A DNA stretch of 64,000 nt, taken from the IMG/VR virus record IMGVR_UViG_3300046460_000097. The stretch is one strand, 5' to 3'. This DNA is from a virus (taxonomy: Duplodnaviria; Caudoviricetes). Shown one piece after another: positions 1,852 to 63,354 of this stretch. The position numbers were made by a program, and so were the translations under genes. Each line of letters begins with the position of its first letter. The stretch's first letter is position 1. The notes beneath the pieces are model-generated. The model saw only the letters and a list, made by a program, of their open reading frames with translations. It searched no databases and was not told the origin of the DNA.

Positions 1852-1863
1852 CACTAGGTATAA

Positions 1864-1895: not shown

Positions 1896-1910
1896 AATAA
1901 GGCTATCGCA

Positions 1911-5498: not shown

Positions 5499-5504
5499 CA
5501 CTTC

Positions 5505-5530: not shown

Positions 5531-5555
5531 CCTGCTCGACCAATGGAGAACGTCT

Positions 5556-8435: not shown

Positions 8436-8444
8436 ATATAACCC

Positions 8445-8477
8445 CTACCCTACAGCCCCATAAAGGCTGTAGGGTAG
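8445..8477. terminator. Bidirectional terminator hairpin between convergent genes
   Basis: Perfect 13-bp stem CTACCCTACAGCC/GGCTGTAGGGTAG. Confidence 0.8.
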
Positions 8478-8485
8478 TAAGGTTG

Positions 8486-29228: not shown

Positions 29229-29747
29229 ATGGCAATTCTGTCACAGCTGGAAGATTACAAAGACCCCTTCAAAGAAGAGAAGGCGGTGTTCGACCACTTC
29301 ACCAGCAACTGGACTACTAACCCCAAGAAGTTGCAGAAGCTGGCTACCCGTATGATTCACTCTGGTGACTATTCGGAATACCTAGTAGAGGGTGTTCTAA
29401 AATCTGTTTTGCGAACCAGAGACCCGCTTGGGTATCTGAAGGAATGTATTAACCAGCACGCTGATTATGCTGTGATCATCCCTGATTTCATCGAGCAAGG
29501 GTTCCACGGGATTATCAAGGATAAGTGGACTGACACTCTTTATCCGCTTGAAGTTAAGGCGTTGGCTAAATGGCTGAAGCTTGAAGACCGTTGGTCAGAA
29601 GAGCAAGAGATCGAAATCATGGAGACAGCAGTTTCTTCATGGATGGAAGCGAACGGTTCCACCAAGTTTGACGGTAAGGTATTGCTGTTTCCCATCTTTG
29701 GGTTCAGTGGTTACTTCCGTGTAATGAAATTCCCTCGCAAGGAGTAA
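29229..29747 (+). CDS. Hypothetical protein, TTNPKKL family member 3
   Basis: NWTTNPKKL, GFHGII, IFGFSG. Confidence 0.8.
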   Translation: MAILSQLEDYKDPFKEEKAVFDHFTSNWTTNPKKLQKLATRMIHSGDYSEYLVEGVLKSVLRTRDPLGYLKECINQHADYAVIIPDFIEQGFHGIIKDKWTDTLYPLEVKALAKWLKLEDRWSEEQEIEIMETAVSSWMEANGSTKFDGKVLLFPIFGFSGYFRVMKFPRKE

Positions 29748-40542: not shown

Positions 40543-42198
40543 ATGCAGCGATTCATGAAAATTACCGATACCCAAGACATGGTAGAAGACGTTATGATGG
40601 ACGTCGCCAAGGCTGTGGTATCCACCATGGGTCCTAATGGCAGGCTGGCACTCATCTCCGTCGGTACCAACAAGAAAGTAACCAAAGATGGTGTAACGGT
40701 TGCTCGGTCTATCAAGTTCGAAGACCCCTTCAAAGAACTGATCAACAAAGTCATCACTGAACCAGCGGTCAAGACTGACGTTGAATGTGGTGATGGTACT
40801 ACCACTACCATCCTGCTGACGGCTGAGCTGTATAGCCTGTTCAGTCAGTTCCCGGGTTACCGTGAGCAGAAGTTCATCGAGCGTCTGGGTGGTCTTCTGA
40901 TCGACGAGCTGCAGCGTATGGCTCGTGTTGTAACGGTCGGTAGCCCAGAGCTGTACCAGATGGCCCTCACGTCCTCTAACGGCGACGTAGAGCTATCCAA
41001 GGTCATCACTGACATCTATGCTCAAGCGAATGGCAAGTTCCCTGAGATCGAACTCAAGGAAGGTGTGACTCGTGCTGACAAGGTTGTACACAGTGACGGC
41101 CTGCCGGTCAAGATGGAATTCTCCAATCCATCGTTCAGCGCAACTGGTAACGGTGCCGATACTGACTTCGAACGTTATGTTCCGTTGGTAATCGACGACA
41201 ACCTGCGTTCCATGCAGCCAGATCAGGCGGTGGAGTTCTTCCGTAAGCTGTTCGACAAGTACAACTTCGGCAAGGACATTGAAGGTGTGGTCATTCCTGT
41301 ACTGCTGATTGCTCGTTCGATCGACAACAGTCTGAACAGTCTGATCATGCAGATCAACAACGTTTCGCCGAAGGTGAAGTTCATCGGCGTTCAAACCAAC
41401 TTCGGCGGTTCGGTTGGTACGTTGCTGATGCAGGACATCGCCATCATGTTGGGTGTTCCGTTCTTCAAGACGCTGGCAGATACACTGCACCAAGATGTTA
41501 AGGCGTGCACTGTTCCTCTGACTGTAGGCTCTCGTCGTTCGGTGATCCGTCCGAATGATCCGGTAACCAAGACACGTATCACTGATCGTGCCAAGGAAAT
41601 CGAAACCGAGCTGGGTACTTATGAAGCGGGCGATCGTTTCAGTATGCGTGCGAAGTTCAACGAACAACGTATGCGTAGTCTGCTTGGCGAACTGGTCACT
41701 GTGTTTGTTGGCGGTGAAACTCAGTCGGAAGTGAAAGAACGTCTGGACCGTTTCGAAGACGTGGGCAAGGCAGTTAAGTCGGCGTTGATTAACGGCATCC
41801 TGCCAGGCGTCGGTTCTGCAATGATTACTGCCGGTCAGTTCGTCTTCGGCGCACTGGATGAGCAGGAGCTGTTGGACTACCCTCCATTTCAGAAGATCGT
41901 TGACGTTATGGAGAAGATCACTTTCGCTCAATTCTTCTTGTTGATGAAGGGGATTGTTTCGGAAGACCAGATGCTCAACATCAAAGCAAATGTCATCGAC
42001 ATGGACTGCCCAGAGCCGATCCGTGTGCTGAACTTGGCAACTGGTGAATGGGGTACTCCGGCGGCGCTGGGTATCTACGATACTGCTTATGCGTCGATCA
42101 CTGCGCTGAAGGGTGGTCTGCAAACGGCCAAGATCTTGGCTAACTTGGATAGTGTTCTGCTTGGCGATAAATCGTCCGCAGTACAAATCCAGGACTAA
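40543..42198 (+). CDS. groEL: Phage-encoded GroEL-like chaperonin
   Basis: TMGPNGR, TKDGVTVA, GDGTTT, catalytic-Asp block RLDRFED, GILPGVG; no GGM tail. Confidence 0.92.
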   Translation: MQRFMKITDTQDMVEDVMMDVAKAVVSTMGPNGRLALISVGTNKKVTKDGVTVARSIKFEDPFKELINKVITEPAVKTDVECGDGTTTTILLTAELYSLFSQFPGYREQKFIERLGGLLIDELQRMARVVTVGSPELYQMALTSSNGDVELSKVITDIYAQANGKFPEIELKEGVTRADKVVHSDGLPVKMEFSNPSFSATGNGADTDFERYVPLVIDDNLRSMQPDQAVEFFRKLFDKYNFGKDIEGVVIPVLLIARSIDNSLNSLIMQINNVSPKVKFIGVQTNFGGSVGTLLMQDIAIMLGVPFFKTLADTLHQDVKACTVPLTVGSRRSVIRPNDPVTKTRITDRAKEIETELGTYEAGDRFSMRAKFNEQRMRSLLGELVTVFVGGETQSEVKERLDRFEDVGKAVKSALINGILPGVGSAMITAGQFVFGALDEQELLDYPPFQKIVDVMEKITFAQFFLLMKGIVSEDQMLNIKANVIDMDCPEPIRVLNLATGEWGTPAALGIYDTAYASITALKGGLQTAKILANLDSVLLGDKSSAVQIQD

Positions 42199-49693: not shown

Positions 49694-49731
49694 TATAACT
49701 CTCCTACCCCGCAAAGGGTAGGAGAGTTATA
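49694..49731. terminator. Bidirectional terminator between the early block and the minus-strand virion module
   Basis: Perfect 16-bp stem TATAACTCTCCTACCC/GGGTAGGAGAGTTATA plus a T-tract. Confidence 0.85.
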
Positions 49732-49757: not shown

Positions 49758-50660
49758 TTATCCGGCGTCAAATACCCACATGTCATTCTGGACGGTGCCG
49801 TTCCAACCACCTGCGACGTAGATCTCGTTAGTCGAAGGTAGAGACGCCATGAAGAGTTCTTGTCGTCCGACACTAGCAAGTGCTAACTGGGTCCATGTTG
49901 CCTCAACTGGGTCGTAGCACCACATCATCCTGCTGTAACCGGCAACAAGTCGACCACCATGAAGGTAGAGTTTCCCATCCAATACAGCCGTCCGGCATCC
50001 AATTAACCCACCAATGGGTTGATCAGGTAACTGAGTCCATGTATCAGTCGCAATGTCATAAACCCAGAAATCCGAAAGATACTGGGCCGTGCTACTGTAA
50101 CCACCGACGAGGTAGAGTTTTCCGTCAATTGCGGCAAGCGTTGTTTTAGTACGACCTGCTCCCGGATAAGGAGACAACGTACTCCATGTATTCGTGGCGA
50201 TGTCGTAGCAACGTAAATCGGCGGCAGCGGTGTTAGTCCAACCACTACTTACATACAACTTACCGTTCCACGATGCCATGGCCCCACTGTAACGTGTGGT
50301 GCCGGCAAGCTTCGACGTCCAAGTATTAGCTGTAGGGTCATAGACCCATAGGTCGCCTATTTGGGCACTAGACGACCTACCAGAGTGCACCCAAATTTTA
50401 CCATCGGCTTCACACATGCATAACTGTGTACGGGCTACCGGCCCAGTGGCTTTAACCGTCCATGACCCGGCGACGGGATCATAATACTTAAAGTCTGCTA
50501 CCGGAGAGTTTACGTTGTTGTTACTACCGCCGAATGCGTAGATCAACCCACCCATCTCGACAAACATGCCGTCCATACGCTGAGCCGACAAGTTGGCTAG
50601 CTTCGTCCATATACCCCGTGGTGCGAGTCCAGCTAGTCCACCTATTAATGCTTCAAGCAT
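49758..50660 (-). CDS. Kelch-repeat beta-propeller protein
   Basis: Six Kelch repeats (GGLIYAFGG, GKIWVHSG, GKLYVSSG, GKLYLVGG, GKLYLHGG, EIYVAGG with YDP..W). Confidence 0.9.
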   Translation of the reverse strand: MLEALIGGLAGLAPRGIWTKLANLSAQRMDGMFVEMGGLIYAFGGSNNNVNSPVADFKYYDPVAGSWTVKATGPVARTQLCMCEADGKIWVHSGRSSSAQIGDLWVYDPTANTWTSKLAGTTRYSGAMASWNGKLYVSSGWTNTAAADLRCYDIATNTWSTLSPYPGAGRTKTTLAAIDGKLYLVGGYSSTAQYLSDFWVYDIATDTWTQLPDQPIGGLIGCRTAVLDGKLYLHGGRLVAGYSRMMWCYDPVEATWTQLALASVGRQELFMASLPSTNEIYVAGGWNGTVQNDMWVFDAG

Positions 50661-50680
50661 GATCAGCTCTCCATAGTCAA

Positions 50681-50700
50681 AAGCCTCCCCGAAGGGAGGC
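50681..50700 (-). terminator. UUCG hairpin between virion genes, copy 1
   Basis: Minus strand GCCTCCC-TTCG-GGGAGGC-TTTT. Confidence 0.7.
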
Positions 50701-50722
50701 TGTTATTATCGACCCATCCTTG

Positions 50723-52927
50723 TTACGGCTTGTACGTCCAGAAGTCAGACAACACACCAACGCCAGGATAATAACCGCCGCCTACGTAAATGCGGCCGTC
50801 GCCTGGAGCTACCATGAACGGAGTAGTCCTGCCATTAGTGGTTAGTATATCCGCCAGTTGAGTCCACGTGTTACCAACAGGATCGTAGGTCCACAGCTTC
50901 TTGACAACCGTCCCACCGACGTTACCGCCGAAGAAGTAGATCTTCCCATCCACTACCGTGGACCTGTGTTGAGCGATGTTACCCATTGGGTGGTCAGCCA
51001 TCTTTGTCCAGACATCAGTAGCAATGTCGTAAGACCAGAATTCGGTACCACCCACGTTACCGCCCGACATATACAGCTTGCCGTTTACAGCGTTGAGGGT
51101 CATGTGTCGACGCCCACCTACAAAACTCGCTTTAACACTCCATGTGTTGGTAGCGATGTCGTAGCAACGCAGGTCGTTCGCGTAGGTGTTGGTATAACCA
51201 CCAACAACGTACAACTTGCCACCGTAAGACGTCATAACACCGTCGTACCGGTCGATACCACTAGCCTTTTGCGCCCACGTGTTAGCCACCGGGTCATAAG
51301 CCCACAGATCACTAAAGACACCACTTGAGCTGTAGCCGGCGTGCACGTAGACTTTACCATCAGTCCCTTCACACATACAGTGCCAGGTTCGAACAGCAGG
51401 CCCTACTGCTTTAGCGGTCCATGTTGCCAGTACAGGATCATAAACACTGAAGGCGCCCGTGGGGTTACTGCCGTCGTTCGCATCACCACCGAAGGTATAA
51501 ATCTTCCCGCTAACCGAGGCCGAACCAATGTTCATCCTTGCAGCAGGAAGGTTGCCCACCCTTGACCAAGCGTTTGACAGATCGGTCAACTCTTCGATCT
51601 GCGGGCGCCACCCTGCGTACTGCTGAGTACCACCGTTAGCGACGTACCAACCCGCCAGTATCTGTCGGTTACCGACGTTGTCAGCATCGTTGTAGCCGCG
51701 CAGTAAGTGGTTATTCCCACCGGTAATGACTTCTTTACACCAGGTCAGTGTACCAAGCCCTCCGGAAGCTGCGGCTTTGTTTGTTGCGAAGCCCAAGTCG
51801 GCGTCCGTAAACGCAGCCCAACGAGGATACGCCAGAACTTCAGGTTGTCCGCTAGCTGCTCCGCCGTAAACCGGGTAAATCAGGTCGTTGAAAGACCCAG
51901 CCGTTGCAATAGACCCGTAGCTAGGAGTAGGATCAACATCAGCACCCGTCGGAAGAGTCAACGCGTAGCGTTTACCACCAAACAGGTAAGGGATATTCCC
52001 TTTAACGACACCAACTGCGTCCATTTGTTCCCAAGTCATTGCGTGTCTCAGGGGTTTCTTCGCGAGGTACGTGGTCTTGCCTTTATAGCGGTACTTCAGC
52101 CAATTGGACGAGGCGTTGGTTACGGTGCCGGCCGCCGCCAAGTTCACCACAGCGGCAAGCGCGCTCGGAGTGATGAAATCCGCGTCGGCAATTTCACCGT
52201 AGTACAGATCTTCAGGAGGAGCCACACCGATGAATTCCAACAGAGGCCGGAAGCCATAGACGTCCAGACTAGCTGTACCGTTACCCTCGTTGACGTTAGC
52301 ATCGTTGATCACGGTGCGCCGGTCGATAGGGTTAACCCCCGTCCCACCAGAGTAGTCCCAACCGCGAGCAGCCAAAGCAGTAGTGATGGTGTTGTGCTGA
52401 TCTTTGGTGACTGTGATCCAGCCCTTCTGTCCATTGAGGCTATCGTTGAGCGCGAGTCCGAGATCAGCCGCCGTGTAATACGACCACACAGCCGCTGTAG
52501 GACGGTTAGCCGCTGCAAAGATCGGGTACAAGTACTGGTTCCACTCTCCGCCGCCGGCAATACCGATGATGGAGTTGAACGGATCAGCAGCCATACCGGA
52601 CATCAAACGAACCTTGTAGATGTCCCCGCGGATGCTGACTTGTTTACCAGCCAACAGTGCGGCTGCTTTATAAGCAGCAACTGTAGTTCCGTAACGAAGC
52701 GGCTTCCTTGCGATGTAGAACGTTTTGCCAGCATCGATGTATTTCAGCCAGCCTGCCTTGTTGTTGATCGAAGTACCCGAAGTCAACGCAAGTAAAGAAG
52801 ACAGAGCAGTACCGTCGATCAGATCGTCAGAACTGACGAATCCTTGAAACGGGTTGCCTGGCTCTACAGCAGGCGGTACGAATGGTATTTCTACCTGACT
52901 CCCTGTCGAGATTAATTGTTCAATCAT
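50723..52927 (-). CDS. Virion protein: two putative CLec-like domains plus a Kelch propeller
   Basis: ATG 52927 after GGGGAAG; two WLKY...KPLR...(G)xRP domains, then six Kelch repeats. Confidence 0.8.
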   Translation of the reverse strand: MIEQLISTGSQVEIPFVPPAVEPGNPFQGFVSSDDLIDGTALSSLLALTSGTSINNKAGWLKYIDAGKTFYIARKPLRYGTTVAAYKAAALLAGKQVSIRGDIYKVRLMSGMAADPFNSIIGIAGGGEWNQYLYPIFAAANRPTAAVWSYYTAADLGLALNDSLNGQKGWITVTKDQHNTITTALAARGWDYSGGTGVNPIDRRTVINDANVNEGNGTASLDVYGFRPLLEFIGVAPPEDLYYGEIADADFITPSALAAVVNLAAAGTVTNASSNWLKYRYKGKTTYLAKKPLRHAMTWEQMDAVGVVKGNIPYLFGGKRYALTLPTGADVDPTPSYGSIATAGSFNDLIYPVYGGAASGQPEVLAYPRWAAFTDADLGFATNKAAASGGLGTLTWCKEVITGGNNHLLRGYNDADNVGNRQILAGWYVANGGTQQYAGWRPQIEELTDLSNAWSRVGNLPAARMNIGSASVSGKIYTFGGDANDGSNPTGAFSVYDPVLATWTAKAVGPAVRTWHCMCEGTDGKVYVHAGYSSSGVFSDLWAYDPVANTWAQKASGIDRYDGVMTSYGGKLYVVGGYTNTYANDLRCYDIATNTWSVKASFVGGRRHMTLNAVNGKLYMSGGNVGGTEFWSYDIATDVWTKMADHPMGNIAQHRSTVVDGKIYFFGGNVGGTVVKKLWTYDPVGNTWTQLADILTTNGRTTPFMVAPGDGRIYVGGGYYPGVGVLSDFWTYKP

Positions 52928-52955
52928 GGTCTTCCCCGTAGAGAAATGGGTAGAG

Positions 52956-52974
52956 AAGCCTCCCCGAAGGGAGG
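52956..52974 (-). repeat. UUCG hairpin, exact 19-nt copy of 50681..50699
   Basis: AAGCCTCCCCGAAGGGAGG on the + strand at both sites. Confidence 0.85.
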
Positions 52975-52987
52975 TCAATCATTTAAC

Positions 52988-54178
52988 TTATACCTTTTCC
53001 AGCAATGGGCGCCAGTTGAAGAACGGGTGTTCTTGGTTGGCGGAGACATACCAAATATCATTGATACCTGGATAACCCGCGCCCGAGTGGGCTCCTGTTT
53101 CGTTAGCAGACGCTTCCTGCAAAATACTAATGTTGATCCCGTCGTTACCCACACCTGCCCAAGCTGCTGTTTGAGAGTCGTACGTCCCATCAGTCAGACC
53201 AACAATGTACTTCTTCCATTCCCGCGCCGCTAAACCACCGCCAGCGATACCTGGGTCTTGTTCACATCCTGTCATGAGGCGAACCTTGAACGTTTGGCCA
53301 CCAATGACAATGGTTCGGTTGCCCGTGATCAAGTTTCTAGCACTCAATTGTTCCCAACTGATGGTGTGTCGAATACCCATGCGTGGGATATAAACTTCTT
53401 TACCCTCTTCGGCGAAGTGCAGCCACTCCACTGTGCCGTTGCTCGGTGTGCCTTCGGTAACCCCCAGCTCTGTAGCCAGTGCTGCAAACGTGATAAAGTT
53501 ATCTTGGTTCACCAGTCCTTTGTAAGCCGATACCGGTAGACTAGACTTCTTAATCAGCAGGGGGCGCCAGCCATGGTACAGTTGAGGAGTGAGGTTGTCT
53601 TGGTACCATACAGACGCAAAATTAGGATAACCACGCGTCAGCCAGCCCCCTCCATATGCTTCCGCACACATGGTTTGAGAACCAGGCTGGGAGTAGTCTG
53701 GTTCGTTGTTACCCATCATGAGTGGTGTGTAGTAACCCCATGTTGGGACCACCGGGTCCGTTGGGTAGGAGTTCCGTTTTGGTGGATCAATCAATGGCAG
53801 CATGTAACGCTGGTAAGCGAACTTAGTGGCGGCTTCATTGCCGTTAATAAATCTGACGATGTAAACTTCGCCACCAATTGTAACTTCTTTGCTGTTACCT
53901 GCTTGTGCCGCGTCAATCGACTGATACGTCAGACCATACCGCAGGGTCTTTTTCGAGATGTAAAGCTCAGTGCCGTCGGCCTCAATGAAATGCAACCAAC
54001 CTGCTGCGTCGTTGTGCTGCATGCCGTCTGTCAGACCGATGGCTTGTGCTAGGGCTCCGCCCGTAATAAAGTTAGCAGATTTGACGATGCCCTTGTAAAT
54101 CGTTCCTCCTGGAAATACCAAATCAGAGTCGTCATCAGCCCCAGCCGGCTTTGTAATAGTTATAAGAGATTCGAACAC
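52988..54178 (-). CDS. Virion protein with two tandem putative CLec-like domains
   Basis: GTG start after GGAGAG; WLHF...LRYG/IRH...GWRPLL and NWRPLLEKV. Confidence 0.7.
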   Translation of the reverse strand: MFESLITITKPAGADDDSDLVFPGGTIYKGIVKSANFITGGALAQAIGLTDGMQHNDAAGWLHFIEADGTELYISKKTLRYGLTYQSIDAAQAGNSKEVTIGGEVYIVRFINGNEAATKFAYQRYMLPLIDPPKRNSYPTDPVVPTWGYYTPLMMGNNEPDYSQPGSQTMCAEAYGGGWLTRGYPNFASVWYQDNLTPQLYHGWRPLLIKKSSLPVSAYKGLVNQDNFITFAALATELGVTEGTPSNGTVEWLHFAEEGKEVYIPRMGIRHTISWEQLSARNLITGNRTIVIGGQTFKVRLMTGCEQDPGIAGGGLAAREWKKYIVGLTDGTYDSQTAAWAGVGNDGINISILQEASANETGAHSGAGYPGINDIWYVSANQEHPFFNWRPLLEKV

Positions 54179-54204
54179 GATGTGCTCTCCCCAAAGGAAT
54201 GTTG

Positions 54205-54663
54205 TTATTCAGCGAGAACGAGTCCTTTGGGTTTAGTGGGATTAGCCACAGCCCGGTAACCTTCAACGCCGCAATTAATCAGGAAGCGTTTCCAAGCCGC
54301 TACCTCGAGCACTTCCATTGCTTCGCGCAAGATCCCGTCAATTTCCTTACGGGTTACAGCTACCTCAGTTTCAACGCCATCGATGAGTTCGATGATCTTG
54401 TAAGTTCTGCACAGGAAATCATGCAGAGTTGTTGCTTGACTGTATTCGTCCAACGGAGGAAGCAACCACCACAAGAAACGTGGAATGGTAGCACCGTCAG
54501 TTAGGAAACCAGTCGGTACGTCAATGTAACGATTAGAACCTTTGAAGCCGATGTAGTAGCGATACCCAGCAGCCACCCTCCAATAGGCTTTGCCATAGAG
54601 CCGACTCGCAGCCTGATCATAGCCCAAAGACTCAACCGCACTGAACCTCGTAAAGTCGCTCAT
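54205..54663 (-). CDS. DUF1353-like protein
   Basis: VPTGFLTDGATIPR and ATTLHDFLC motifs; typical neighbour of tail genes. Confidence 0.8.
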   Translation of the reverse strand: MSDFTRFSAVESLGYDQAASRLYGKAYWRVAAGYRYYIGFKGSNRYIDVPTGFLTDGATIPRFLWWLLPPLDEYSQATTLHDFLCRTYKIIELIDGVETEVAVTRKEIDGILREAMEVLEVAAWKRFLINCGVEGYRAVANPTKPKGLVLAE

Positions 54664-54687
54664 AGTTTAAACTCCATGTGTTTAAAT

Positions 54688-54708
54688 CCTCCCTCCTAAG
54701 AGGGAGGG
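54688..54708 (-). terminator. Intergenic hairpin
   Basis: CCTCCCTC-CTAA-GAGGGAGG. Confidence 0.55.
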
Positions 54709-54715
54709 TCGTTGA

Positions 54716-55372
54716 TTACAGAGTGAAGAATACCCCCGGAGGAGTTGGCAACTCTTCCATGGTGGTGGCGAGATCGATAGCTTTCTTGTAAGCCCAGATC
54801 ACCTTGTAGCCAGCGATTACTTGAACCAAGGCTCGATCTGCCAGCGCAACCATTTCAGCTGCGGTGAGAACGACCTCGACGTTTTCCAGTACGCGGAACT
54901 CGAAGGTCATATCACCGCTGGCAGCGATTACTTCTTTGGCGATGCAGCGCAGGTCGGAGATATTGCCACGGTCGCCGGTACGCACTTGTACGTGGTAAAC
55001 GTTTTCGCCGAACTGGTACGGGAAGCCAGTAGCGAACGCAGCGACGCGCAGATCTTCGGCGCTCGACTGGAGCTCTTCCTTACGACGTGCAAGCTTGTTA
55101 GCGACCTCGATTTCGGTGAAGCTACGGACGGTCCAGGTTTGGTACCATTCGCCCTCACGGAGCTCTGGGGCACCTTCAGTGACGACATCACCTTCTGGCT
55201 GAGCAACGCTGTGTACAACCTCGATACCGAAGTCGATCAGACAGTCAGAATCGACCGTCGCTGGGAATACAGTATTAGGTGCGAAGCGAGCCATATCCGC
55301 CAAGAAGATCGGATAGGTCATGGTGTCGGATTCGATCAAGCGGGTAGTGCGGTCAACAATGGACATAGTCAT
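54716..55372 (-). CDS. Tail fibre assembly/chaperone-like protein (DUF4376-like C-terminus)
   Basis: GEWYQTWTVR and RKEEL..R..A..TGF patterns seen in fibre-assembly proteins. Confidence 0.6.
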   Translation of the reverse strand: MTMSIVDRTTRLIESDTMTYPIFLADMARFAPNTVFPATVDSDCLIDFGIEVVHSVAQPEGDVVTEGAPELREGEWYQTWTVRSFTEIEVANKLARRKEELQSSAEDLRVAAFATGFPYQFGENVYHVQVRTGDRGNISDLRCIAKEVIAASGDMTFEFRVLENVEVVLTAAEMVALADRALVQVIAGYKVIWAYKKAIDLATTMEELPTPPGVFFTL

Positions 55373-55393
55373 TTCCTTAAAGGAAGGGTTGTG

Positions 55394-56290
55394 TTAAAGA
55401 ACGAGTTCGAGGATGAGACGTTGCGAAAGCACGGTGGCTCGCGGTGCAGAACCTCCTGGCGCGAAGATCTGACCGGGCTGACTGCCGTATTGACATGCGG
55501 CGTTAACACCGGTGAATTCAGCAAACACAGCGTTAACACCACCAGACTGAGTGAAATACGTGGAATCCACATAACTCGCAACATCGTTGCAAGGGAACGG
55601 ACTACCTTGGTTAAACATGCTGACGAAGCAGTGGAACCACTCGCTGTCGTAGTCCTTTGCAACACCGGTGTTGTAGACGTAATCAGCAGACGTTTGGCAG
55701 CGGGGCGTCCTGATAATGAAATCATGCTCCCCTTTGCTGAGGATTTTGAGTTGGTCTACCCCCGTCAAACCATGACCAGTTGCAGGACCGTTACCGGCAA
55801 CTCCATACATACACCCAGCGCTGTACAACTGGTTCCAGCTGATACCCAGGATATGGCGAAGAGGGGCAAACAGGATTTTACCCTTCAGGATAAACTTACC
55901 CCATTCACCTTGAGTGGCGTTAACGTTCCCGACACCGATCAACGCGTAGATCTCTTGGGTAAGCGCGACATCGGCGGCCTGCATCATCCCGAAGAACCCA
56001 CGTTCCCATGTACCGGATTGCAAGGTAGACGGGCCGGGGCCGGTGTAAGGCATATTGATCGCCACCTGTTGAGGGGTGTAAACGACCTCAGTACCTTTCT
56101 TCACCGCAATCACGTAGTAGTAGTACTTGTTCTGAATAGCTGTGGTGTCTTCGTATTGAAGCGAGCCGTCGGTGACCGTGCCGATCTTGTTGGTAGGGAT
56201 TTCACCATTAGCCAACTTGGTGTCTGAACGAAAGACTTGAACTTCATCGAACGTAGTGTTCGGATTAGCCCACTTGATTGTGATACTCAT
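55394..56290 (-). CDS. Virion protein: FN3/Ig-like N-domain plus a putative CLec-like domain
   Basis: IKW...VFRSD...YEDTT...YYYVI; YTGPGP linker; ISWNQLY domain. Confidence 0.65.
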   Translation of the reverse strand: MSITIKWANPNTTFDEVQVFRSDTKLANGEIPTNKIGTVTDGSLQYEDTTAIQNKYYYYVIAVKKGTEVVYTPQQVAINMPYTGPGPSTLQSGTWERGFFGMMQAADVALTQEIYALIGVGNVNATQGEWGKFILKGKILFAPLRHILGISWNQLYSAGCMYGVAGNGPATGHGLTGVDQLKILSKGEHDFIIRTPRCQTSADYVYNTGVAKDYDSEWFHCFVSMFNQGSPFPCNDVASYVDSTYFTQSGGVNAVFAEFTGVNAACQYGSQPGQIFAPGGSAPRATVLSQRLILELVL

Positions 56291-57246
56291 ACAACCACCT
56301 CAATACCCTTGTCAGGGATCATTTCCAGTACAGGTAGCCAAGAACAGGTAGTGTTCCACGGTTGAAGAACAAGCTTCTCCATGTCAGCCCCACTGGTTGG
56401 GGCCGTCGATGCCAGCGCACGGGCAAAACCAGTAGTCCCTTGCCTGGTGGAAGACGCAATTTCCCGACCGGAGTTCATTGCACTGTAGCCTATTGCGTGA
56501 GGGAGCTTAGGACACCGTGCACTAGGCGCAACATAGTTACTGATCATCGGGTGAATAAAGTCAGACACCTCACTGAAGCGGCGCAAACTATCCGCTGGTG
56601 AAGCTACGATAGTGTCGGTCGGATTGGCACGGTCATCAGCGCCCGTGGGAAGACGAACAATGAATTGATCGAAGCCCTTGGTAATGATCTTCCGCTGGTT
56701 GACCGGGGTGGTCGTAGTGGTGGGCATCCAAGGACCGTTATCATCCGTACCGAAATGCACGCCCGACTTGTAGAACACATCGTAAAGAACAGCGATGTGG
56801 ATAGGGGCGTTGGGGACGTAACAAATCTTCCCTCTCCGGATCCACTTGTTCCAAGTCGGGAGTGGGTTAGAAGTGTACGGCGACGGGGCGATCGTTAACA
56901 ACGCCATGAGGTCAGCCGGGAAAATGAAGTCTGTCGAGTTAACAGTCCCGAAGAACCCTAACTGGGTATCACCCCAAACCAGATCACGCGGCCCTGGGCC
57001 GTTGTTGTAATCGGCAACTACCTTAATCGGGTTAGAGTAAGCACTCTGTCCGCCGTTGACGGTTTCAAGGGTGTAGTAGTACGTGTTACGACGAACAACA
57101 GTTTCATCGGTCCACGTGGTGATCGCGCCATCGAGGGTTGCCAGTGCCGTCCCGAGCTGGTCGTTAGGCTTTTGTGTATCATTTCGATAAATCTTGGTGG
57201 TCACCGGAATCTGGTTACGGTTCAACCACTTGAGTTTAACGTACAT
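56287..57246 (-). CDS. Virion protein: FN3/Ig-like N-domain plus a putative CLec-like domain (paralog)
   Basis: LKW...IYRND...WTDET...YYYTL; NGPGP linker; SWLPVLE end. Confidence 0.65.
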   Translation of the reverse strand: MYVKLKWLNRNQIPVTTKIYRNDTQKPNDQLGTALATLDGAITTWTDETVVRRNTYYYTLETVNGGQSAYSNPIKVVADYNNGPGPRDLVWGDTQLGFFGTVNSTDFIFPADLMALLTIAPSPYTSNPLPTWNKWIRRGKICYVPNAPIHIAVLYDVFYKSGVHFGTDDNGPWMPTTTTTPVNQRKIITKGFDQFIVRLPTGADDRANPTDTIVASPADSLRRFSEVSDFIHPMISNYVAPSARCPKLPHAIGYSAMNSGREIASSTRQGTTGFARALASTAPTSGADMEKLVLQPWNTTCSWLPVLEMIPDKGIEVVV

Positions 57247-57256
57247 TAGTTATACC

Positions 57257-58228
57257 TCATGTGTACACGATGTCGGTTACCACTAGCTGGTTTAGTAGAC
57301 CAGTTTCTAGCTGTACTTCGGTCCGTTTAATTTTCAGTACCTGACTTGGGTACGTAACGTCAGTAACGACTGCTGGTTCATGAATGACGACCGTTGTAGT
57401 AGTCCCACGGTACTTGGCCAGTCCTACACTCTGGATGACGTCAGTGATTGATGCGGGTTGTAGCGGATCAAGCTGCGCTGCCAAATCGATATACGGCAAC
57501 AGCGGTAGTTCGTTCCCAGGAATCAACTCAAGTGCGGGAAGCCAATAGTTAAGCTCCGTCTTAGGTGAGGAATACGTATACGTGTTATCGACGTGTTGTG
57601 CGTATGACGGGCCGGCGACGTAGGTACGTTGTGTAGGAACCTTTCGGCCACCCCAAGCAAAGGAGCTAGCGGAGAAGATACCCCACTTAGGTCCGCTATA
57701 AGCAGCAGGAGCACCTTGTACCAGCGCGTAGATCAACTGCACGAATTCAGAGCCACTAATGTTAGCCCCAGCACCGGTTAACAATTGCTGCGAGCCTGAA
57801 CTGGTAGGGTCTGGGTTTGAATCGGCGGCAAACAAACGAACTTTTAGAACATCGGTTCCGACGTTCAAGATTTTAAACTGATTCGTCGGAGTAGCGGTTG
57901 GATAATTACCGTTGCTGTCCACACCGTAAACTAGACCGGCGTTGTACAACTGGTTCCAGCTGAGGTTGTAAGCAAGGGTGTTGGTTGGAAAATAAAGGAC
58001 CTTGCCTTTGTAGAACATCTTTACCCAGGTGTACGGTGCACCCTCGTCATTCCCGTTAAAGAAGTTAAACAAACTTCTTAGTTTTCCTAAGGTGACAAGT
58101 TCAGCTGGGGTAAGCGTTCCGAAGTAACCTAATTGTTCGTTGCCGTAAAGAAGGTTCTTCGAGCCAGGTCCGGAGTTAGGAAAATTCGTCTGACCTCTTG
58201 AACCTAACCCTACGAGTGCTTCAAACAT
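57257..58228 (-). CDS. Virion protein with one putative CLec-like domain
   Basis: SGPGS...GYFG...WVKM...LSWNQLY...YWLPALEL. Confidence 0.65.
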   Translation of the reverse strand: MFEALVGLGSRGQTNFPNSGPGSKNLLYGNEQLGYFGTLTPAELVTLGKLRSLFNFFNGNDEGAPYTWVKMFYKGKVLYFPTNTLAYNLSWNQLYNAGLVYGVDSNGNYPTATPTNQFKILNVGTDVLKVRLFAADSNPDPTSSGSQQLLTGAGANISGSEFVQLIYALVQGAPAAYSGPKWGIFSASSFAWGGRKVPTQRTYVAGPSYAQHVDNTYTYSSPKTELNYWLPALELIPGNELPLLPYIDLAAQLDPLQPASITDVIQSVGLAKYRGTTTTVVIHEPAVVTDVTYPSQVLKIKRTEVQLETGLLNQLVVTDIVYT

Positions 58229-58260
58229 GATGCGACTCCTCTAAAATAAACACACGAGAA

Positions 58261-58280
58261 CCTCCCCCGTTAAAGGGAGG
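58261..58280 (-). terminator. Intergenic hairpin after the fibre gene
   Basis: CCTCCC/GGGAGG stem, same arms as the 50681 and 52956 hairpins. Confidence 0.55.
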
Positions 58281-58297
58281 CTCTGTGCGCTAATGGG

Positions 58298-61200
58298 TTA
58301 AGGCACTACTGCGCCTGCTGCACCCACCCACTCAACACCATCCCAGGTGAAGGTAAGGTAAGTGCGGCTACCGGTCAGAGCAGGAGGAGACCCCGTGTTC
58401 CAGACCAGAGCGGTAGCCCCAGTAGGAGCGAAGGTAATGACACCTGCAGCACCGTTGACTTTCACTACCACAACCAACGCACGAGCACCGTTTGGACTAG
58501 CAGTCTTCGGACCGTCCGCCAGCGTGATGGTTTTGGCAGTTGCACCGGAGTTATCGATCCGGCAGAACAGGTTAACGTTCGGGTCGATGCCACCAGTCGC
58601 AGACAGGGCCAGAATCGGCACGTCGTAACGGTCGAAGGAGACCCAGCCAGTGCCTTTGTAGACGTATTGCTTACCGTCGTTCGCAGGCGCTGCGATACCT
58701 TGAGCTGGCAGAACCACCCAAGTCTTGTCGCCCTTACGGACATACAAGTTGCTGTCCGTTGGGACGTCAGCGAAGCCAGGTACGAATGCAGTGATCTGCG
58801 CCTGGATTTTGCCGAAGGCCGTGAGGACCGTGTCAGCAGCAGTGATAGCACCACCAGTACCGAAGGAGACACCAGCCAGCGTAACTGCACGCACACGAGC
58901 AGGGGTGTGGTAGAGGTTAGTCGTACCTTCAGCTACGGCGTCTGTAGTTCCAGGCGAAGCTACCAGTCCAATGTAAACAGAACCAGTCCAGCGGAACTGT
59001 GCGTTGGTTGCGAGGGAGATGTAGATCTTCCCTGTTTCACCCGTTGCAGGGAATGCCGCTTGGTTAGCAAACTCCAGAACGTCATCGACGTAGCTAGGCA
59101 ACTGACCTGCTGGGATCTTGCCAGCAACCAGAGTCGGAACACTAACACCCAACTCAGCAACCGGAACACCACCCAAGCTGGTAATCGTAGGAACGTTATA
59201 CTGCAGCCAAGTGTGGTCACCTTTACGCAGGTAGGTGTTGCTGTCCGTAGGAACGTCAGCGAACCCTGGGAATGGCAGTTCAACCCACTCACCTTCGTTG
59301 TCGGTGTTACCATCCTTGAGAGAACGGACGTACATCTTGCCCGGTTCCATGTCTGGCACTTCGTCAACCGGCAGTACGATCCACTCGTTGCCCAGACGTA
59401 CAGCCTTACCGAAGGACAGCAGCGGCGAGTTAACATCACCCGCAACCAGTTGACCCCAGTACTGCCAGCCGCCTACAGCAGACTTGTAGTAGACCTTGAA
59501 GGTATCCGACACAGCCCAGTCACCGATGTTACCGGTGAAACCTGCACCCGGTTCATCAACACCAGCAGGCAGAGTAATCCAGACGGAGCCTTTATCACCC
59601 TTGTCGCCTTTCTTGCCGATACCGATAGGGCCTTGAACACCTTGAACACCCTGAGGACCACGAACCAGACCGATGTCGATCCACTTGCCGCCTTCAGCAG
59701 TAGTCCAGATAGCCAGGTTGTTACCAACCAGATAGCCATCGCCCAGTGTACCGGTCGGATGAGCAGCAGCCAGATCACCGATGGTGTTGTACGCACCCAA
59801 GATCTGGATGGACGTACCTGGATCGCCCTTCTCACCGTTTTCACCTGGAGGACCCTCTGGACCGGTGATGTCGAATGGACCTTCCCACTCGCCTTCAGTC
59901 AGAACGTAGAGTTCCTTGGTGCTGACGATGAACCAGCCGTCACCATTCTGAGCACCCTGTTGGATGCTAGGCAGGTATTGAGGACCAGCCACGTAACCAC
60001 GCAGGTTGATACCGGTACCTTGGTCACCTTTAGGGCCAGGAGCGCCCACAGGACCACAGTCAACCCACACACCGCCCAAGGAGATGAACAGGATGTTGTT
60101 CAGGTCGACGTAAGCCTTACCTGGGTTGGTCACTGGATCTGGAACTTCTTCGTTACCAGGAGTCAGGATCTTGATGATCGTGATCGAGGAGCCGTTAGCA
60201 CCAGGAGAACCGTTCTCACCGTCAGCGCCTTTGAAGGAACCCAGCGCTACCCAGTTACCGCCGATCTGAGCATACAGGGTGTTGGTGTCACGTACAGCCC
60301 ATACATCTTGTTCCGCTGGAGAAGCCGGCAGTGCGGTGTAAGTAGCAACCGAACCCTTAACGATGATGTTGGTACCGTTGGTACCGTTGGTGCCTTTCAG
60401 CGAAGCCAAGAACTCAGCCGACGAACCGGTGAAGCCCTGAGACAGCCACAGTTGGTAAGTAGACTGCCCGCGGAAAGGACCAACGTCTACCCAGTTACCG
60501 CCGGTGAGAACATGCAGGTGACCGTCGTCATCGGTAACGTAACCATCCTGCTCTACCGGGTTAACGATGTTACCCAGTTGAGGAGCGTTGGCGACAGTGC
60601 CTTTAACGTTCAGGTTCTGACCGCGTGGACCTTCTGGACCCGGAACAACAGAGTGCAACGAAGTCAACCACTGTTGCAGTGTGCCGCCGTAACCGTCAGT
60701 GACAGCGAGATCGTAAGCAGACAGACCGCCTACAGAACCCAAGTCGACATATTCGCCCGGATCAGTTACCCAGACGTACAGGTGGCTACCAACGTACCAA
60801 GCCTCGGTTGGAGTACCCGGAGTTGGCAGAGCTGCTTCGTTAACCTTGGAGCCCTTAACTTCGAACGGGGCACGAGCAGGACCTTCAGGACCTTCAGGAC
60901 CTGGAGTGATCGAAACCAGACTGGCGAGGAATGCGTCTTCGTCACCAACACCACCTCGGTCTTTCCAGATCTGGTAAGCGGACTTACCAATCAGAGTCGC
61001 CAGCCATTGAGGCTTGGTACCCACGAAACCTGTTTCAACAGCCGTGTCATAGGCACTTTGACCTTCAGGGCCTTCCAGACCGATGGAGTTCCAAACTGGA
61101 TCCAGGTCAGGATCGCTGCCGTCACCACCCGGGATCAGCAACCACAGGTCGCTCTTCCAGATGTAGGCATCACCGATGGTCGAAGACTGCCACGCAGGAA

Positions 61201-62674
61201 GCGCAGAGCCATCAGGCCATGTACCCAGCAGGGTAACACCGCGTTGACCCAGCAGAGAACCAGAGCTTGGCCAGTCAGTGCCGTTCCAGATACGCAGAGC
61301 ACCTTGAACGAAGTACGCAGTACCGATAGCCAAGCCCGCAGTTGGGATGGCGTCCAGCGCTGCTTCGTTGTCCAGTGTACCCACGAGGGTAATAGCGCCA
61401 GCATCACCTTTAACACCTTTCAGGCTGGCGATGAACTGTGCTTCGGTACCGCTGTTGCCCAGATCTTTCCAGGACTGGTACGCCGACTTGCCGATCAGGC
61501 TGGTCAGGTACTCAGACTGAGTGCCAGGGAAGCCAGCAGCTTTCGCGAGGTCATACGCGGACAGCCCGTCATCACCTTTAAGACCGATGGTTACCCAACC
61601 TTCAACAGGGATGAGCATCCAGATGTCTTTCTTCCAGTAGTACGCATCGCCAATCTCGTTGGCATCTACGGCAGGAAGAGGAACAGCGTCAGGCCATTGA
61701 CCCAGAACAGTGATACCACGTTTGCCCAACAGCGAGTTGGAATGGATCCACTCGTCGCCGTTCCACACGGACATACCGGCAGCAACGAAGTACGCATCAC
61801 CAACCGACAGACCGGCTGTAGGGATCGCGTCGAGGTCTTCGAAGTTGTTCAGCGTACCCAACAGCAGGATGGAGCCGGATTCGCCATTAGTGCCCTTCAG
61901 GGACTCTAGGAACTCGGCTTCGGTGCCAGCAGGGTGACCGTTGTCTTTCCACGTTTGATACGCGGACTTACCAACGAGGGTCAGGAGCCATTCGGCTTCA
62001 GTGCCGCTGTTGCCTTGACCGAGCCAGATTTGGTAAGCAGTCTTGCCAACCAAGCTGGCAGCGAACTCTGCTTCAGTGCCAGTGTTGCCTTGGTCTTTCC
62101 AAGACTGGTAAGCACTCTTACCTACGAGGCTAACAAGCCACTGTGGTTTGGTGCCAGAGAAGCCACCTGCAACAGCGATGTCGTAAGCACTGTCACCGGT
62201 GTCGCCTTTCAGACCGATAGTGACCCAGTCATCCGGTTCAGGGATAAGGAGCCAGATGTCGCTCTTCCAGATGTAGGCGTCGCCCACTTCGTTGTTGTCG
62301 CGGGTAGGCAGCGCCAAACCATCTGGCCAGCGACCCAGCAGGGTGATACCGCGCGGACCGAGCAGGGAACCGGAGTCTACCCATTCGATCATGTTCCAGA
62401 CGCAGAGAGACGACTCAACAAAGTAAGCATCACCTTTCTTGAGGTCTTCGGTTGGAATGGCGTCCAGATCCGCGTGAGTGTTCAGCGTACCGATGACGTT
62501 GAGGCCACCAACGATCAGCGCAGCGAGCTGGGCTTTCAGGTAGTCGGTACGCGCAGCCAACGCGACGGCCTGTTTGTTAGAAGGAGCGGCCTCGTCGCCG
62601 CCCTTTACGTCTTCTCCCTCCGCCAAAAGCGGTACGGCGGGAAAAGTGTCGGGTTTTTCCGTGATGTCAGTCAT
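58298..62674 (-). CDS. Collagen-like repeat fibre/whisker protein with foldon-like motifs (1458 aa)
   Basis: Gly-X-Y runs (GPEGPEGP, GVQGVQGPIG), GKSAYQxW repeats, three ~170-aa tandem units, foldon-like GFADVPTDSNxYxRK and APANDGKQYVYK. Confidence 0.85.
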   Translation of the reverse strand: MTDITEKPDTFPAVPLLAEGEDVKGGDEAAPSNKQAVALAARTDYLKAQLAALIVGGLNVIGTLNTHADLDAIPTEDLKKGDAYFVESSLCVWNMIEWVDSGSLLGPRGITLLGRWPDGLALPTRDNNEVGDAYIWKSDIWLLIPEPDDWVTIGLKGDTGDSAYDIAVAGGFSGTKPQWLVSLVGKSAYQSWKDQGNTGTEAEFAASLVGKTAYQIWLGQGNSGTEAEWLLTLVGKSAYQTWKDNGHPAGTEAEFLESLKGTNGESGSILLLGTLNNFEDLDAIPTAGLSVGDAYFVAAGMSVWNGDEWIHSNSLLGKRGITVLGQWPDAVPLPAVDANEIGDAYYWKKDIWMLIPVEGWVTIGLKGDDGLSAYDLAKAAGFPGTQSEYLTSLIGKSAYQSWKDLGNSGTEAQFIASLKGVKGDAGAITLVGTLDNEAALDAIPTAGLAIGTAYFVQGALRIWNGTDWPSSGSLLGQRGVTLLGTWPDGSALPAWQSSTIGDAYIWKSDLWLLIPGGDGSDPDLDPVWNSIGLEGPEGQSAYDTAVETGFVGTKPQWLATLIGKSAYQIWKDRGGVGDEDAFLASLVSITPGPEGPEGPARAPFEVKGSKVNEAALPTPGTPTEAWYVGSHLYVWVTDPGEYVDLGSVGGLSAYDLAVTDGYGGTLQQWLTSLHSVVPGPEGPRGQNLNVKGTVANAPQLGNIVNPVEQDGYVTDDDGHLHVLTGGNWVDVGPFRGQSTYQLWLSQGFTGSSAEFLASLKGTNGTNGTNIIVKGSVATYTALPASPAEQDVWAVRDTNTLYAQIGGNWVALGSFKGADGENGSPGANGSSITIIKILTPGNEEVPDPVTNPGKAYVDLNNILFISLGGVWVDCGPVGAPGPKGDQGTGINLRGYVAGPQYLPSIQQGAQNGDGWFIVSTKELYVLTEGEWEGPFDITGPEGPPGENGEKGDPGTSIQILGAYNTIGDLAAAHPTGTLGDGYLVGNNLAIWTTAEGGKWIDIGLVRGPQGVQGVQGPIGIGKKGDKGDKGSVWITLPAGVDEPGAGFTGNIGDWAVSDTFKVYYKSAVGGWQYWGQLVAGDVNSPLLSFGKAVRLGNEWIVLPVDEVPDMEPGKMYVRSLKDGNTDNEGEWVELPFPGFADVPTDSNTYLRKGDHTWLQYNVPTITSLGGVPVAELGVSVPTLVAGKIPAGQLPSYVDDVLEFANQAAFPATGETGKIYISLATNAQFRWTGSVYIGLVASPGTTDAVAEGTTNLYHTPARVRAVTLAGVSFGTGGAITAADTVLTAFGKIQAQITAFVPGFADVPTDSNLYVRKGDKTWVVLPAQGIAAPANDGKQYVYKGTGWVSFDRYDVPILALSATGGIDPNVNLFCRIDNSGATAKTITLADGPKTASPNGARALVVVVKVNGAAGVITFAPTGATALVWNTGSPPALTGSRTYLTFTWDGVEWVGAAGAVVP

Positions 62675-62684
62675 AACTCAACCT

Positions 62685-63263
62685 TTAATAAGTGATAGTA
62701 CCGTCGTGTTTGTAAGTACCGTCGTATTTCTTGGCGCCTGTTGGATTAGCTTCGACGATGGTAAGCGTCCCTACCACGGTATGTGAATCGATGGTCGCCG
62801 TAGTGACATCGAAGTCAACAGTGATTTCCGTATCGAGCAAAGCGTACTGACAACTGTTCTTGATGATCGACTTAACCATCACAGGAGACAGATCCCCATT
62901 GCTAACAAGAATTGCTCCTGTCGTGCTACCGCCCTCTCCTGACAAGAGGTAAAAGCCCTGCATGCCTTTTGTCTTTAGAACCTCGAGGGTGAGAGGTCCC
63001 GGCTCGATCGGGTTTGCAATACCGTCATCGCTATACGTAGCGGGGGTATATTTCTGGTCTACACCAGTGAAAAGATTTGGGGAATCGACGTCCACCAAAT
63101 AACTGATAATGCCTGCATTCACCGCTTTCCGAAAGTTGGTGAACGCTACAGTGCCGAGTGTCAGGGTTGAGAGTGCATTTACGAAGTCGTGTTCATCCTT
63201 ATATCGTTCCTGGTTATAAGCGATGAACCTGTCCAAAAACAGTTGATCATTTGGAAAGGCCAT
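62685..63263 (-). CDS. Putative virion structural/adaptor protein, paralog of 42547..43128
   Basis: First gene of the fibre operon; TATG motif on the minus strand at about 63298-63301. Confidence 0.6.
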   Translation of the reverse strand: MAFPNDQLFLDRFIAYNQERYKDEHDFVNALSTLTLGTVAFTNFRKAVNAGIISYLVDVDSPNLFTGVDQKYTPATYSDDGIANPIEPGPLTLEVLKTKGMQGFYLLSGEGGSTTGAILVSNGDLSPVMVKSIIKNSCQYALLDTEITVDFDVTTATIDSHTVVGTLTIVEANPTGAKKYDGTYKHDGTITY

Positions 63264-63354
63264 ATTAAATTCCACGGTAATGTCAGGGGTGGTAGATCAT
63301 AAAATTGGGAAATAGAATAATGGTGTTAAATTACTTTATAACCGTTTTCACAAC

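Follow-up and report, generated by a model that had tools for sequence, protein, structure and literature searches.

A cassette of ten minus-strand genes in IMG/VR record IMGVR_UViG_3300046460_000097, a 64,000-nucleotide stretch of DNA from a virus of the Caudoviricetes (the whole stretch is hereafter called the window), places five proteins holding seven copies of one predicted C-type-lectin-fold (CLec-type) domain, together with two Kelch propellers, directly beside a tail-fibre gene. We propose, at a probability of about 0.6 for both statements jointly, that this cassette serves host recognition in a jumbo phage from soil that is uncultured and EL-like (Chimalliviridae-type) and that its lectin-fold and Kelch proteins are virion-borne accessory adhesins diversified by duplication. 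The proposal builds on the homology of the copies, their predicted fold class, the sequence family to which they belong, their linkage to the fibre gene, the variation in their copy number, and a short N-terminal tag, and from these we infer the remainder. The cassette is syntenic with that of Pseudomonas phage EL in a tblastn comparison, and the window is part of a jumbo phage, with tail- or baseplate-type genes at 1-9487 followed by replication genes and a GroEL gene (40543-42198). The virion-protein family concerned is already known, though uncharacterised, and the cassette represents an expansion of it.

Seven copies of a predicted lectin-fold domain

A first-pass annotation of the window had described a fibre, five proteins with seven domain copies, and two Kelch propellers on the minus strand, and all of these elements were confirmed. 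A profile made from the seven copies matched exactly seven regions, in the five proteins, and no others among the six-frame open reading frames (ORFs) of at least 50 aa in the window at E ≤ 10, a search that is circular for the seven copies themselves. In BLASTP comparisons within the cassette, the 323-, 319-, and 298-aa proteins were linked as one subfamily (A; E values of 2e-16 to 2e-24), with the 298- and 319-aa proteins aligning from residue 1 (E 2e-24), and the 396-aa protein was linked to a 751-aa ORF as subfamily B (E 5e-32), with two copies in each, those of the 751-aa protein occupying its first two-thirds. That ORF, listed as 50723-52978 from a TTG codon, probably starts at the ATG at 52927 and is then a 734-aa protein. 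The two subfamilies were themselves connected by BLASTP (E values of 1e-5 to 1e-7) and by a profile-profile comparison of orthologue alignments (99.5% probability; E 4e-22; 195 columns). The copies measure 185 to 230 aa rather than the ~170 aa of the first description, and the motif given for them reappears in their alignment as G..Y.G.V ... W-L-K ... G-K..Y ... L-R ... W.Q ... V-R-L ... W-R-P-x-L-E. Pairwise identity between copies is 19 to 32%, and the duplications are therefore old.

The segment before the last strand (W-R/L-P-x-L-E), singled out earlier as different in every copy, is indeed the most variable part of the domain, both between copies and among orthologues. Orthologue entropy reaches ~1.6 to 2.3 bits, with insertions and deletions, in the 60 to 70 residues preceding that strand and is 0.5 to 0.8 bits in the core motifs; some earlier loops are also variable. 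Four columns (G, W, G, G) are invariant in the seven copies, and G, W, G, P are invariant in 59 family members, along with a nearly invariant G-W-R-P-x-L-E. No Cys or His is conserved in either set, the seven copies having 0, 3, 5, 1, 1, 0, and 1 cysteines with no column in common, which speaks against both a canonical Ca-dependent lectin site and a catalytic role like that of FGE.

The suggestion of a CLec-type fold held up in structure prediction. The AF2 model of the 396-aa protein (pLDDT 83.1; pTM 0.71; 28-sequence alignment; first 15 residues disordered) has a predicted alpha/beta fold in which the N- and C-terminal strands are paired and a long loop region precedes the last strand. Both domains of this model matched CLec-type structures in a representative-wide search, and at least 44 of 50 among the matches listed have titles that we take to denote CLec, C-type-lectin-like domain (CTLD), or FGE-type proteins. 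The matches include PvdO (7.4), TvpA (7.0), PorK (6.6), the Bd2740 tip (6.5), EgtB/SenA, and Mtd (5.9), as well as CEL-I, CD94, CLEC-2, TaqVP, and, for the first domain, invasin InvE. CLec-type proteins were again dominant in a second look at Foldseek's own candidates, and TvpA, Mtd, and CTLDs appeared among the weak rows of the Foldseek comparison of the 396-aa model with the PDB.

With phmmer against PDB sequences nothing meaningful was found (best E values, 0.29 for the 396-aa protein and 0.11 for the 319-aa protein), and a 59-sequence family profile gave one chance match there (E 0.93). Pfam and NCBIfam recognised no family on the domain; no Pfam model covered it in the sets of 34, 17, and 59 family proteins scanned, and Lectin_C had no match at E ≤ 1 in the 59 members. 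DUF6273, which emerged from ESM Atlas features (clusters at 0.84, below the lead level of 0.9), has no Pfam support at E ≤ 1 and was kept as a lead only.

A family of virion proteins, its tag, and its place beside fibre genes

The five proteins fall into phrog_1062, phrog_3589, phrog_16120, and phrog_21620 ("virion structural protein"), with E values of 1e-38 to 2e-92. Homologues were found by tblastn in 39 phage records, all of them from jumbo phages or large myoviruses, mostly annotated as virion structural protein and all below 60% identity; they include Pseudomonas phages D6, Noxifer, 201phi2-1, PhiPA3, and relatives and phages of Erwinia, Ralstonia, Burkholderia, Salicola, and Pectobacterium. 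The match to 201phi2-1 gp456 extends over 99% of the query at 33.6% identity, and the record of that phage lists gp456 and its paralogue gp452 as virion proteins detected by mass spectrometry and similar to phiKZ gp83. The family profile finds a single match in phiKZ, gp83 (E 3.6e-44), and a single match in EL, gp155 (E 9.5e-43). Judged by sequence, the cassette proteins thus belong to the phiKZ gp83/EL gp155/201phi2-1 gp456 family. In the BFVD, 29 structural matches were obtained at E ≤ 1e-3, and all of the named ones come from jumbo phages or large myoviruses, including EL.

The domain is widespread. The seven-copy profile matched 2267 clusters (50% identity) at E ≤ 1e-3, and 1716 at E ≤ 1e-10, among 1.84 billion representatives, with up to eight copies per protein. 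Its fused partners are adhesion modules: Kelch in 7 of 34 proteins, Laminin_G_3 in 5 of 34, F5/8-C (discoidin) and Big/Ig-like domains as well, and Mtd_N in 7 of the 59 family members scanned. Other arrangements seen in the database are three B-type copies per chain (P0003), a B-B-A order (P0021), and eight copies with a DUF285 in the 2172-aa P0051. In the literature on lectins of jumbo phages, phiKZ, and Chimalliviridae, we found no paper that gives the family a fold or a function; a jumbo-phage review states that no FGS or C-type-lectin-fold domains were found in jumbo phages (PMC7824862), and an eel-mucus metagenome paper mentions, without detail, a C-type lectin domain in a phiKZ-like contig.

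To place the cassette among its relatives, we compared seven loci, namely five IMG/VR loci (L010 to L014) fetched with the cassette's DUF4376 protein as anchor, EL, and the window itself. The domains adjoin the fibre and DUF4376 genes in all seven. Seven copies stand beside the fibre gene in the window, in L010 (99% identical to the window), and in L011; four in L012, L013, and L014; and one in EL (gp155). This series of 1, 4, or 7 copies, together with the finding that the 64 kb of the window hold no template/variable repeat pair, supports duplication as the source of diversity. In EL, the cassette consists of gp158 (homologous to the 192-aa protein), gp157, gp156 (tail fibre), gp155 (tag, one domain, Kelch), gp154 (DUF4376), and gp153 (tag, Kelch).

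Divergence between the window and L011 is uneven along the cassette: identity is 45% for the 192-aa protein, 52% for the fibre, 72 to 82% for subfamily A, 76% for the DUF4376 protein, 91% for the DUF1353 protein, and 92 to 94% for the two-domain proteins. Within the fibre, the first 900 residues are 3 to 57% identical, with insertions and deletions, and the last ~300 are 82 to 100% identical; the 192-aa protein diverges together with the fibre N-terminus. The hot spot of recombination or divergence is therefore the N-terminal two-thirds of the fibre plus the small upstream protein and not the lectin-fold genes. The final 18 residues of the fibre are conserved even in EL. Such a conserved end would be unusual for a receptor-binding tip, and a docking or assembly role would fit it.

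The Kelch modules are real, both exceeding the Pfam gathering scores. The stand-alone 300-aa protein scored 168.8 bits with Kelch_1 (cut-off, 20.1) and 72.3 bits with NANM (cut-off, 45), residues 469 to 740 of the 751-aa ORF scored 117.7 bits with Kelch, and the Kelch regions matched Kelch domains among PDB sequences with E values reaching 7e-31.

Four cassette proteins (323, 396, 734, and 300 aa) begin with a six-residue tag, M-[FLI]-E-x-L-[IV], and the 319- and 298-aa proteins begin with FN3 in its place. In the window, the looser pattern M-[FLIVM]-E-x-[LMIV]-[LIVMF] occurs at 5 of 408 ATGs with at least 100 open codons downstream; three of these are cassette N-termini and two lie 42 and 187 codons inside other genes, and the tag stands at no other plausible N-terminus in the window. 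Of 195 family proteins fetched, 57 begin with the tag, and many others have a near-variant of it. The tag likewise stands at the N-terminus of phiKZ gp83 and gp298, of EL gp155 and gp153, and of whichever lectin-fold protein comes first in L011, L013, and L014. Its presence on stand-alone Kelch proteins shows that it does not depend on the lectin-fold domain; in the 396-aa model, it is disordered. In L013, a 247-aa protein (10701-11441) between the DUF4376 and DUF1353 genes starts with MIECLL and has no match to the lectin-fold profile, which brings the kinds of protein body behind the tag to at least three.

Gene layout, fibre, and small genes

In the ORF listing, a plus-strand block stops at 49477, and the ten minus-strand genes then occupy 49758-63275. 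Their order in the direction of transcription is 192/196, 1458, 323, 319, 298, 218 (DUF4376), 152 (DUF1353), 396, 751/734, and 300 aa (Table 1), with intergenic gaps of -4 to 69 nt. This tight packing agrees with the single operon first suggested, whereas strong hairpins after the fibre gene and after the 751-aa gene speak against it; a single operon is possible, and the cassette may also be transcribed as more than one unit or with attenuation. All three hairpins from a scan for terminator-like structures are strong and GC-rich, and the one between the convergent gene blocks is the probable end of the cassette transcript.

Table 1. Features of the fibre cassette (window coordinates)
Feature	Coordinates	Strand	Remarks
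192-aa protein	62685-63263	-	EL gp158 homologue; the "adaptor" of the first-pass annotation
1458-aa fibre	58298-62674	-	Short collagen-like runs and repeated modules; homologue of EL gp156 and phiKZ gp145/146
12-bp-stem hairpin	58257-58284	-	Between fibre stop and next gene; terminator-like scan
323-aa protein	57257-58228	-	Tag MFEALV; one subfamily-A domain (57509-58177); 85-aa C-terminal extension
319-aa protein	56287-57246	-	FN3 (residues 1-81), then subfamily-A domain (56305-57006)
298-aa protein	55394-56290	-	FN3-like N-terminus, then subfamily-A domain (55397-56056)
218-aa DUF4376 protein	54716-55372	-	Pfam PF14301, E 5.5e-9; phrog_4998
152-aa DUF1353 protein	54205-54663	-	Pfam PF07087, E 2.4e-21; phrog_1158, label "tail assembly chaperone"
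396-aa protein	52988-54178	-	Tag MFESLI (GTG start); two subfamily-B domains (53531-54127, 52991-53539); 201phi2-1 gp456 homologue
734-aa protein	50723-52927	-	Tag MIEQLI; two subfamily-B domains (52214-52876, 51569-52225); Kelch (50726-51571)
8-bp-stem hairpin	50682-50701		Directly after the 751-aa gene; terminator-like scan
300-aa stand-alone Kelch propeller	49758-50660	-	Tag MLEALI; Pfam Kelch_1, E 1.4e-50
16-bp-stem hairpin	49694-49731	.	Between convergent gene blocks; terminator-like scan

The fibre matches phrog_3904 ("tail fiber protein"; E 2.5e-192), and its tblastn matches are in EL-type phages, in 201phi2-1 ("tail fiber protein"), in phiKZ (PHIKZ145/146), and in phi92 (gp151). Homologues of this kind (EL gp156, phiKZ gp145/146, phi92 gp151) are annotated as tail fibres, and no mark of a neck whisker was seen; the "whisker" of the first-pass annotation is not supported. 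Its "collagen" corresponds to 14 short G-X-Y runs of 3 to 6 triplets (51 triplets in total), and the label is an interpretation, as is "foldon": the fibre has no Pfam foldon match and, at E ≤ 0.01, no Pfam family except DUF2934. The sequence D-x-N-x-Y-x-R-K-G-D-x-T-W occurs in it twice (at 1144 and 1307). A phmmer search of the fibre against PDB sequences returned no match. Residues 1182 to 1299 (window 58778-59131) are 60.7% identical to a Flavobacterium phage 11b protein and 40 to 60% identical to proteins of Cellulophaga, Flavobacterium, and crAss-like phages; on the strength of these alignments, we regard the segment as a module common to very distant phages.

The 192-aa protein is listed as a 196-aa ORF (62685-63275) from a GTG, and its true start is probably the ATG at 63263, since homologues align from residue 5 of the longer ORF. 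It is 42% identical to its EL counterpart over residues 5 to 196 (tblastn); among the PHROGs, it aligns with phrog_18233 and with the first 186 positions of phrog_21620, a family whose further positions match the lectin-fold domain. A second shared N-terminal module may be present in its first ~75 residues, which are similar to the start of EL gp147 (34% over 74 aa; E 1e-8), encoded next to GroEL (L009 28272-28910). Orthologues of the DUF4376 protein are present in L010 to L014 and as EL gp154, that is, in all seven loci with the window.

By megablast, the whole cassette had no match in 50,697 phage records. The nearest record, a 105.6-kb fragment (G001; 68% shared words), carries the same seven copies. 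Elsewhere in the window, a separate tail module (1-9487), 40 kb from the fibre cassette, encodes three very large plus-strand proteins (613+, 1225, and 959 aa), with matches to phrog_3573 and phrog_14667 and partial "minor tail protein" matches, and a baseplate assembly protein on the minus strand (8486-9487). A family of 44-nt direct repeats with 68 to 77% identity lies at 26003-26046, 27304-27347, and 29307-29350, near the starts of three small plus-strand ORFs (25922-26449, 27229-27882, and 29229-29747) that look like paralogues with a common N-terminal motif; the ORF at 27229-27882 has no PHROG match.

Proposed mechanism, alternatives, and known systems

We suggest that the cassette proteins would be incorporated into the virion through an N-terminal module, either the six-residue tag or FN3, so that the side of the lectin fold bearing the variable loops, or a face of the propeller, is exposed to glycans or proteins of the host surface. 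Several diverged copies could then widen or secure adsorption, for which phiKZ gp298 and its effect on some wild strains are the precedent, and diversity would arise by duplication of genes and domains and by recombination between phages, without a diversity-generating retroelement (DGR). The functional anchor is that phiKZ protein: in a transposon-mutagenesis preprint (PMC12676376), gp298 is described as a Kelch, NanM-like, low-abundance virion protein that is dispensable on strain PAO1, and the orf298::Tn mutant adsorbs to PAO1 and fails on the wild isolates PA1032 and Env201. The insertion table of that preprint gives 21 insertions and 11,194 reads for PHIKZ298; for PHIKZ083 (AF399011.1 80347-81861, 1515 bp), it gives 1 insertion and 4 reads, near the zero of core structural genes, and 0 for gp29, gp84, gp131, and the putative tail fibres gp145 and gp146 (PMC12676376). 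By analogy with the gp298 precedent, structures of the host cell surface are more likely ligands than biofilm matrix or plant or animal surfaces, which had been offered earlier. In sum, of that earlier interpretation, the predicted CLec fold, the variable segment, the Kelch propellers, and the duplication are supported, and the whisker is not. That the lectin-fold proteins sit on the 1458-aa fibre is suggested by gene linkage; a complex prediction with three copies of the fibre's last 169 residues and the 323-aa protein scored 0.02 (mark, 0.32), which is no evidence either way.

A further step is more doubtful. The tag, in the form M-[FLI]-E-x-L-[IVL], could be a universal docking peptide of chimallivirus-type jumbo phages that plugs interchangeable lectin-fold and Kelch adhesins into one conserved socket, for which candidates would be the DUF4376 protein and the C-terminal part of the gp145/146-type fibre, conserved to an unusual degree. 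If this were true, host range would be set by the tagged modules that a phage carries, in a modular and retroelement-free manner, and host recognition by phiKZ-like phages, in which the receptor-binding proteins have yet to be defined, could find its explanation here.

Several observations weigh against the proposal that these proteins are adhesins. Detection in virions covers relatives only, the phage itself being uncultured; the phiKZ GenBank record labels gp83 a "structural head protein"; gp83 is not mentioned in the phiKZ cryo-EM atlas or capsid paper; and no family member has a known ligand. The pattern of divergence from L011 counts against it as well, because the two-domain lectin-fold proteins are the most conserved and the first 900 residues of the fibre and the 192-aa protein the most diverged, which does not suit lectin-fold proteins as the fastest-evolving determinants of specificity. 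As to the fold, Foldseek gave nothing at E ≤ 1e-3 against the PDB for either model, and the search with the subfamily-A model was filled by FN3 in all 50 listed rows, so that the fold evidence comes from subfamily B. The domain has no conserved cysteine and hence none of the canonical CTLD disulfide pairs, nor was there any of the Ca2+/carbohydrate motifs of true C-type lectins. Two structural papers indicate that Mtd, Lcl-CTD, and Bd2740 likewise have no canonical CTLD disulfide pairs (PMC11162425, PMC10769870).

The head label raises an alternative that we consider unlikely, namely, that these are head- or neck-associated decoration proteins outside the tail-fibre apparatus that bind to matrices in the environment (biofilm, mucus, or the surfaces of plants or animals). 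The PHROG category of the families ("head and packaging: virion structural protein") agrees with it, as do the location of the phiKZ gp83 and gp298 genes away from the tail genes and the discussion of lectin-like decorations of jumbo phage heads and tails in a review (PMC7824862). However, the genes stand directly beside the tail-fibre gene in 7 of 7 EL-like loci (window included), loss of gp298 abolishes adsorption to specific hosts (PMC12676376), and the phiKZ capsid paper is silent on gp83. It appears quite unlikely that the domains are structural building blocks, that is, spacers or connectors at the periphery of the fibre or baseplate that bind no ligand and whose paralogues take distinct positions. 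The 92 to 94% conservation of the two-domain proteins between the window and L011 would suit such a role, and so would the near lack of transposon insertions in phiKZ gp83 on the laboratory host, like that of core structural genes (PMC12676376), and the wealth of paralogous proteins that another study reports for chimallivirus baseplates (PMC13250141). On the other side, the spread in copy number among related phages, from 1 to 7, does not look like a set of fixed structural positions, and the hypervariable loop region with its insertions and deletions and the fusion of the domain elsewhere to Kelch, Laminin_G_3, discoidin, and Mtd_N also argue against this role.

A further alternative is that the domains are enzymes like FGE, EgtB, or PvdO, acting on a substrate of the host surface or of the virion. 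This is very unlikely given that no Cys or His is conserved, that the invariant residues are G, W, G, and G, that the 0 to 5 cysteines per copy share no position, and that the Pfam FGE-sulfatase model has no match in 59 members at E ≤ 1. Least probable of all is that the domains are DGR targets, as Mtd and TvpA are. No direct repeat of at least 40 nt links the 3' end of a domain to a template within the 64 kb, the repeats found being only old paralogous stretches with 60 to 84% identity; the copies are 19 to 32% identical in protein; and there was no reverse transcriptase among 34 ORFs scanned against PHROGs, a scan outside which ~30 ORFs of the window lie. A DGR was therefore rejected for the window.

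The reading as accessory adhesins of a host-recognition module matters because little is settled about receptor binding proteins in jumbo phages of the phiKZ-like and EL-like kinds; in two cryo-EM papers of 2026, most of the peripheral baseplate and fibres is left unmodelled. The cassette joins a gp145/146-type fibre, gp83-type "virion structural proteins", and a Kelch protein like the adsorption factor gp298, so far regarded separately, in one gene neighbourhood under one tag, and the gp83 family gains a testable fold assignment, a Ca-free C-type-lectin fold as in Mtd. Should they prove to be adhesins, copy number and loop sequences would serve as useful markers from which to predict the host range of jumbo phages under consideration for biocontrol or therapy.

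The closest known relatives are phiKZ gp83, EL gp155, 201phi2-1 gp456/gp452, and PhiPA3 gp080, which have clear sequence homology and the same N-terminal tag. The order of tag, lectin fold, and Kelch in phiKZ gp83 and EL gp155 is that of the 734-aa protein, and the EL gp155 gene follows the fibre gene in the same position as in the window. In contrast to the one domain of EL and the one of phiKZ, the window has seven in five proteins, including an FN3-headed subfamily that is not in the EL cassette. EL gp153, with tag and Kelch, has the architecture of the 300-aa protein. That protein and phiKZ gp298 are both stand-alone Kelch/NanM-like propellers of ~300 aa with tags (MLEALI and MFELLL, respectively), but their similarity is weak (26% over 96 aa; E 2e-4, pairwise) and falls short of orthology, and the gp298 gene is away from the tail genes, whereas the 300-aa gene ends the fibre cassette. 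What the window contributes is the largest fibre-linked array among those compared, the 1/4/7-copy series, and the link by tag to phiKZ gp83 and gp298.

Beyond this family, Mtd of Bordetella phage BPP-1, TvpA, and TaqVP have the Ca-free CLec-type fold that is predicted for the cassette domains, with a variable region before the C-terminal strand, and Mtd_N is carried by some distant family members; unlike Mtd-type DGR proteins, the domains have no template repeat in the window and no sequence similarity to them by profile, and their diversity comes from duplicated genes. Lcl-CTD and Bd2740 are described as Ca-free C-type-lectin-fold adhesin heads on fibrous stalks (PMC11162425, PMC10769870). 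The heads of Legionella Lcl-CTD (8q4e) and the Bdellovibrio MAT fibre Bd2740 (8oks) are trimeric and fused to their own stalk, whereas the cassette domains are separate polypeptides, often with two per chain, are ~50% longer, and have no detectable sequence relation to them. DUF7941 filament proteins (Goslar gp22/gp23; phiKZ gp126, gp127, and gp143) are chimallivirus-specific paralogous virion proteins for which carbohydrate-binding modules for host recognition were proposed (PMC13742148). Identity with these was rejected, the domain profile matching phiKZ only at gp83 and not at gp126, gp127, or gp143, and no filament-forming head-to-tail module is evident in the cassette proteins. In branched systems with multiple receptor-binding proteins, such as the hyperbranched fibres of Klebsiella jumbo phage phiKp24, several different binding proteins are reported to be encoded with the fibre and to dock through conserved N-terminal pieces; the binding modules of the cassette differ in being lectin-fold and Kelch domains and not depolymerase tailspikes. 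By analogy, then, the proposed mechanism would most resemble that of Ca-free lectin-fold adhesin heads (Mtd, Lcl, and Bd2740) combined with that of multi-adhesin fibre systems.

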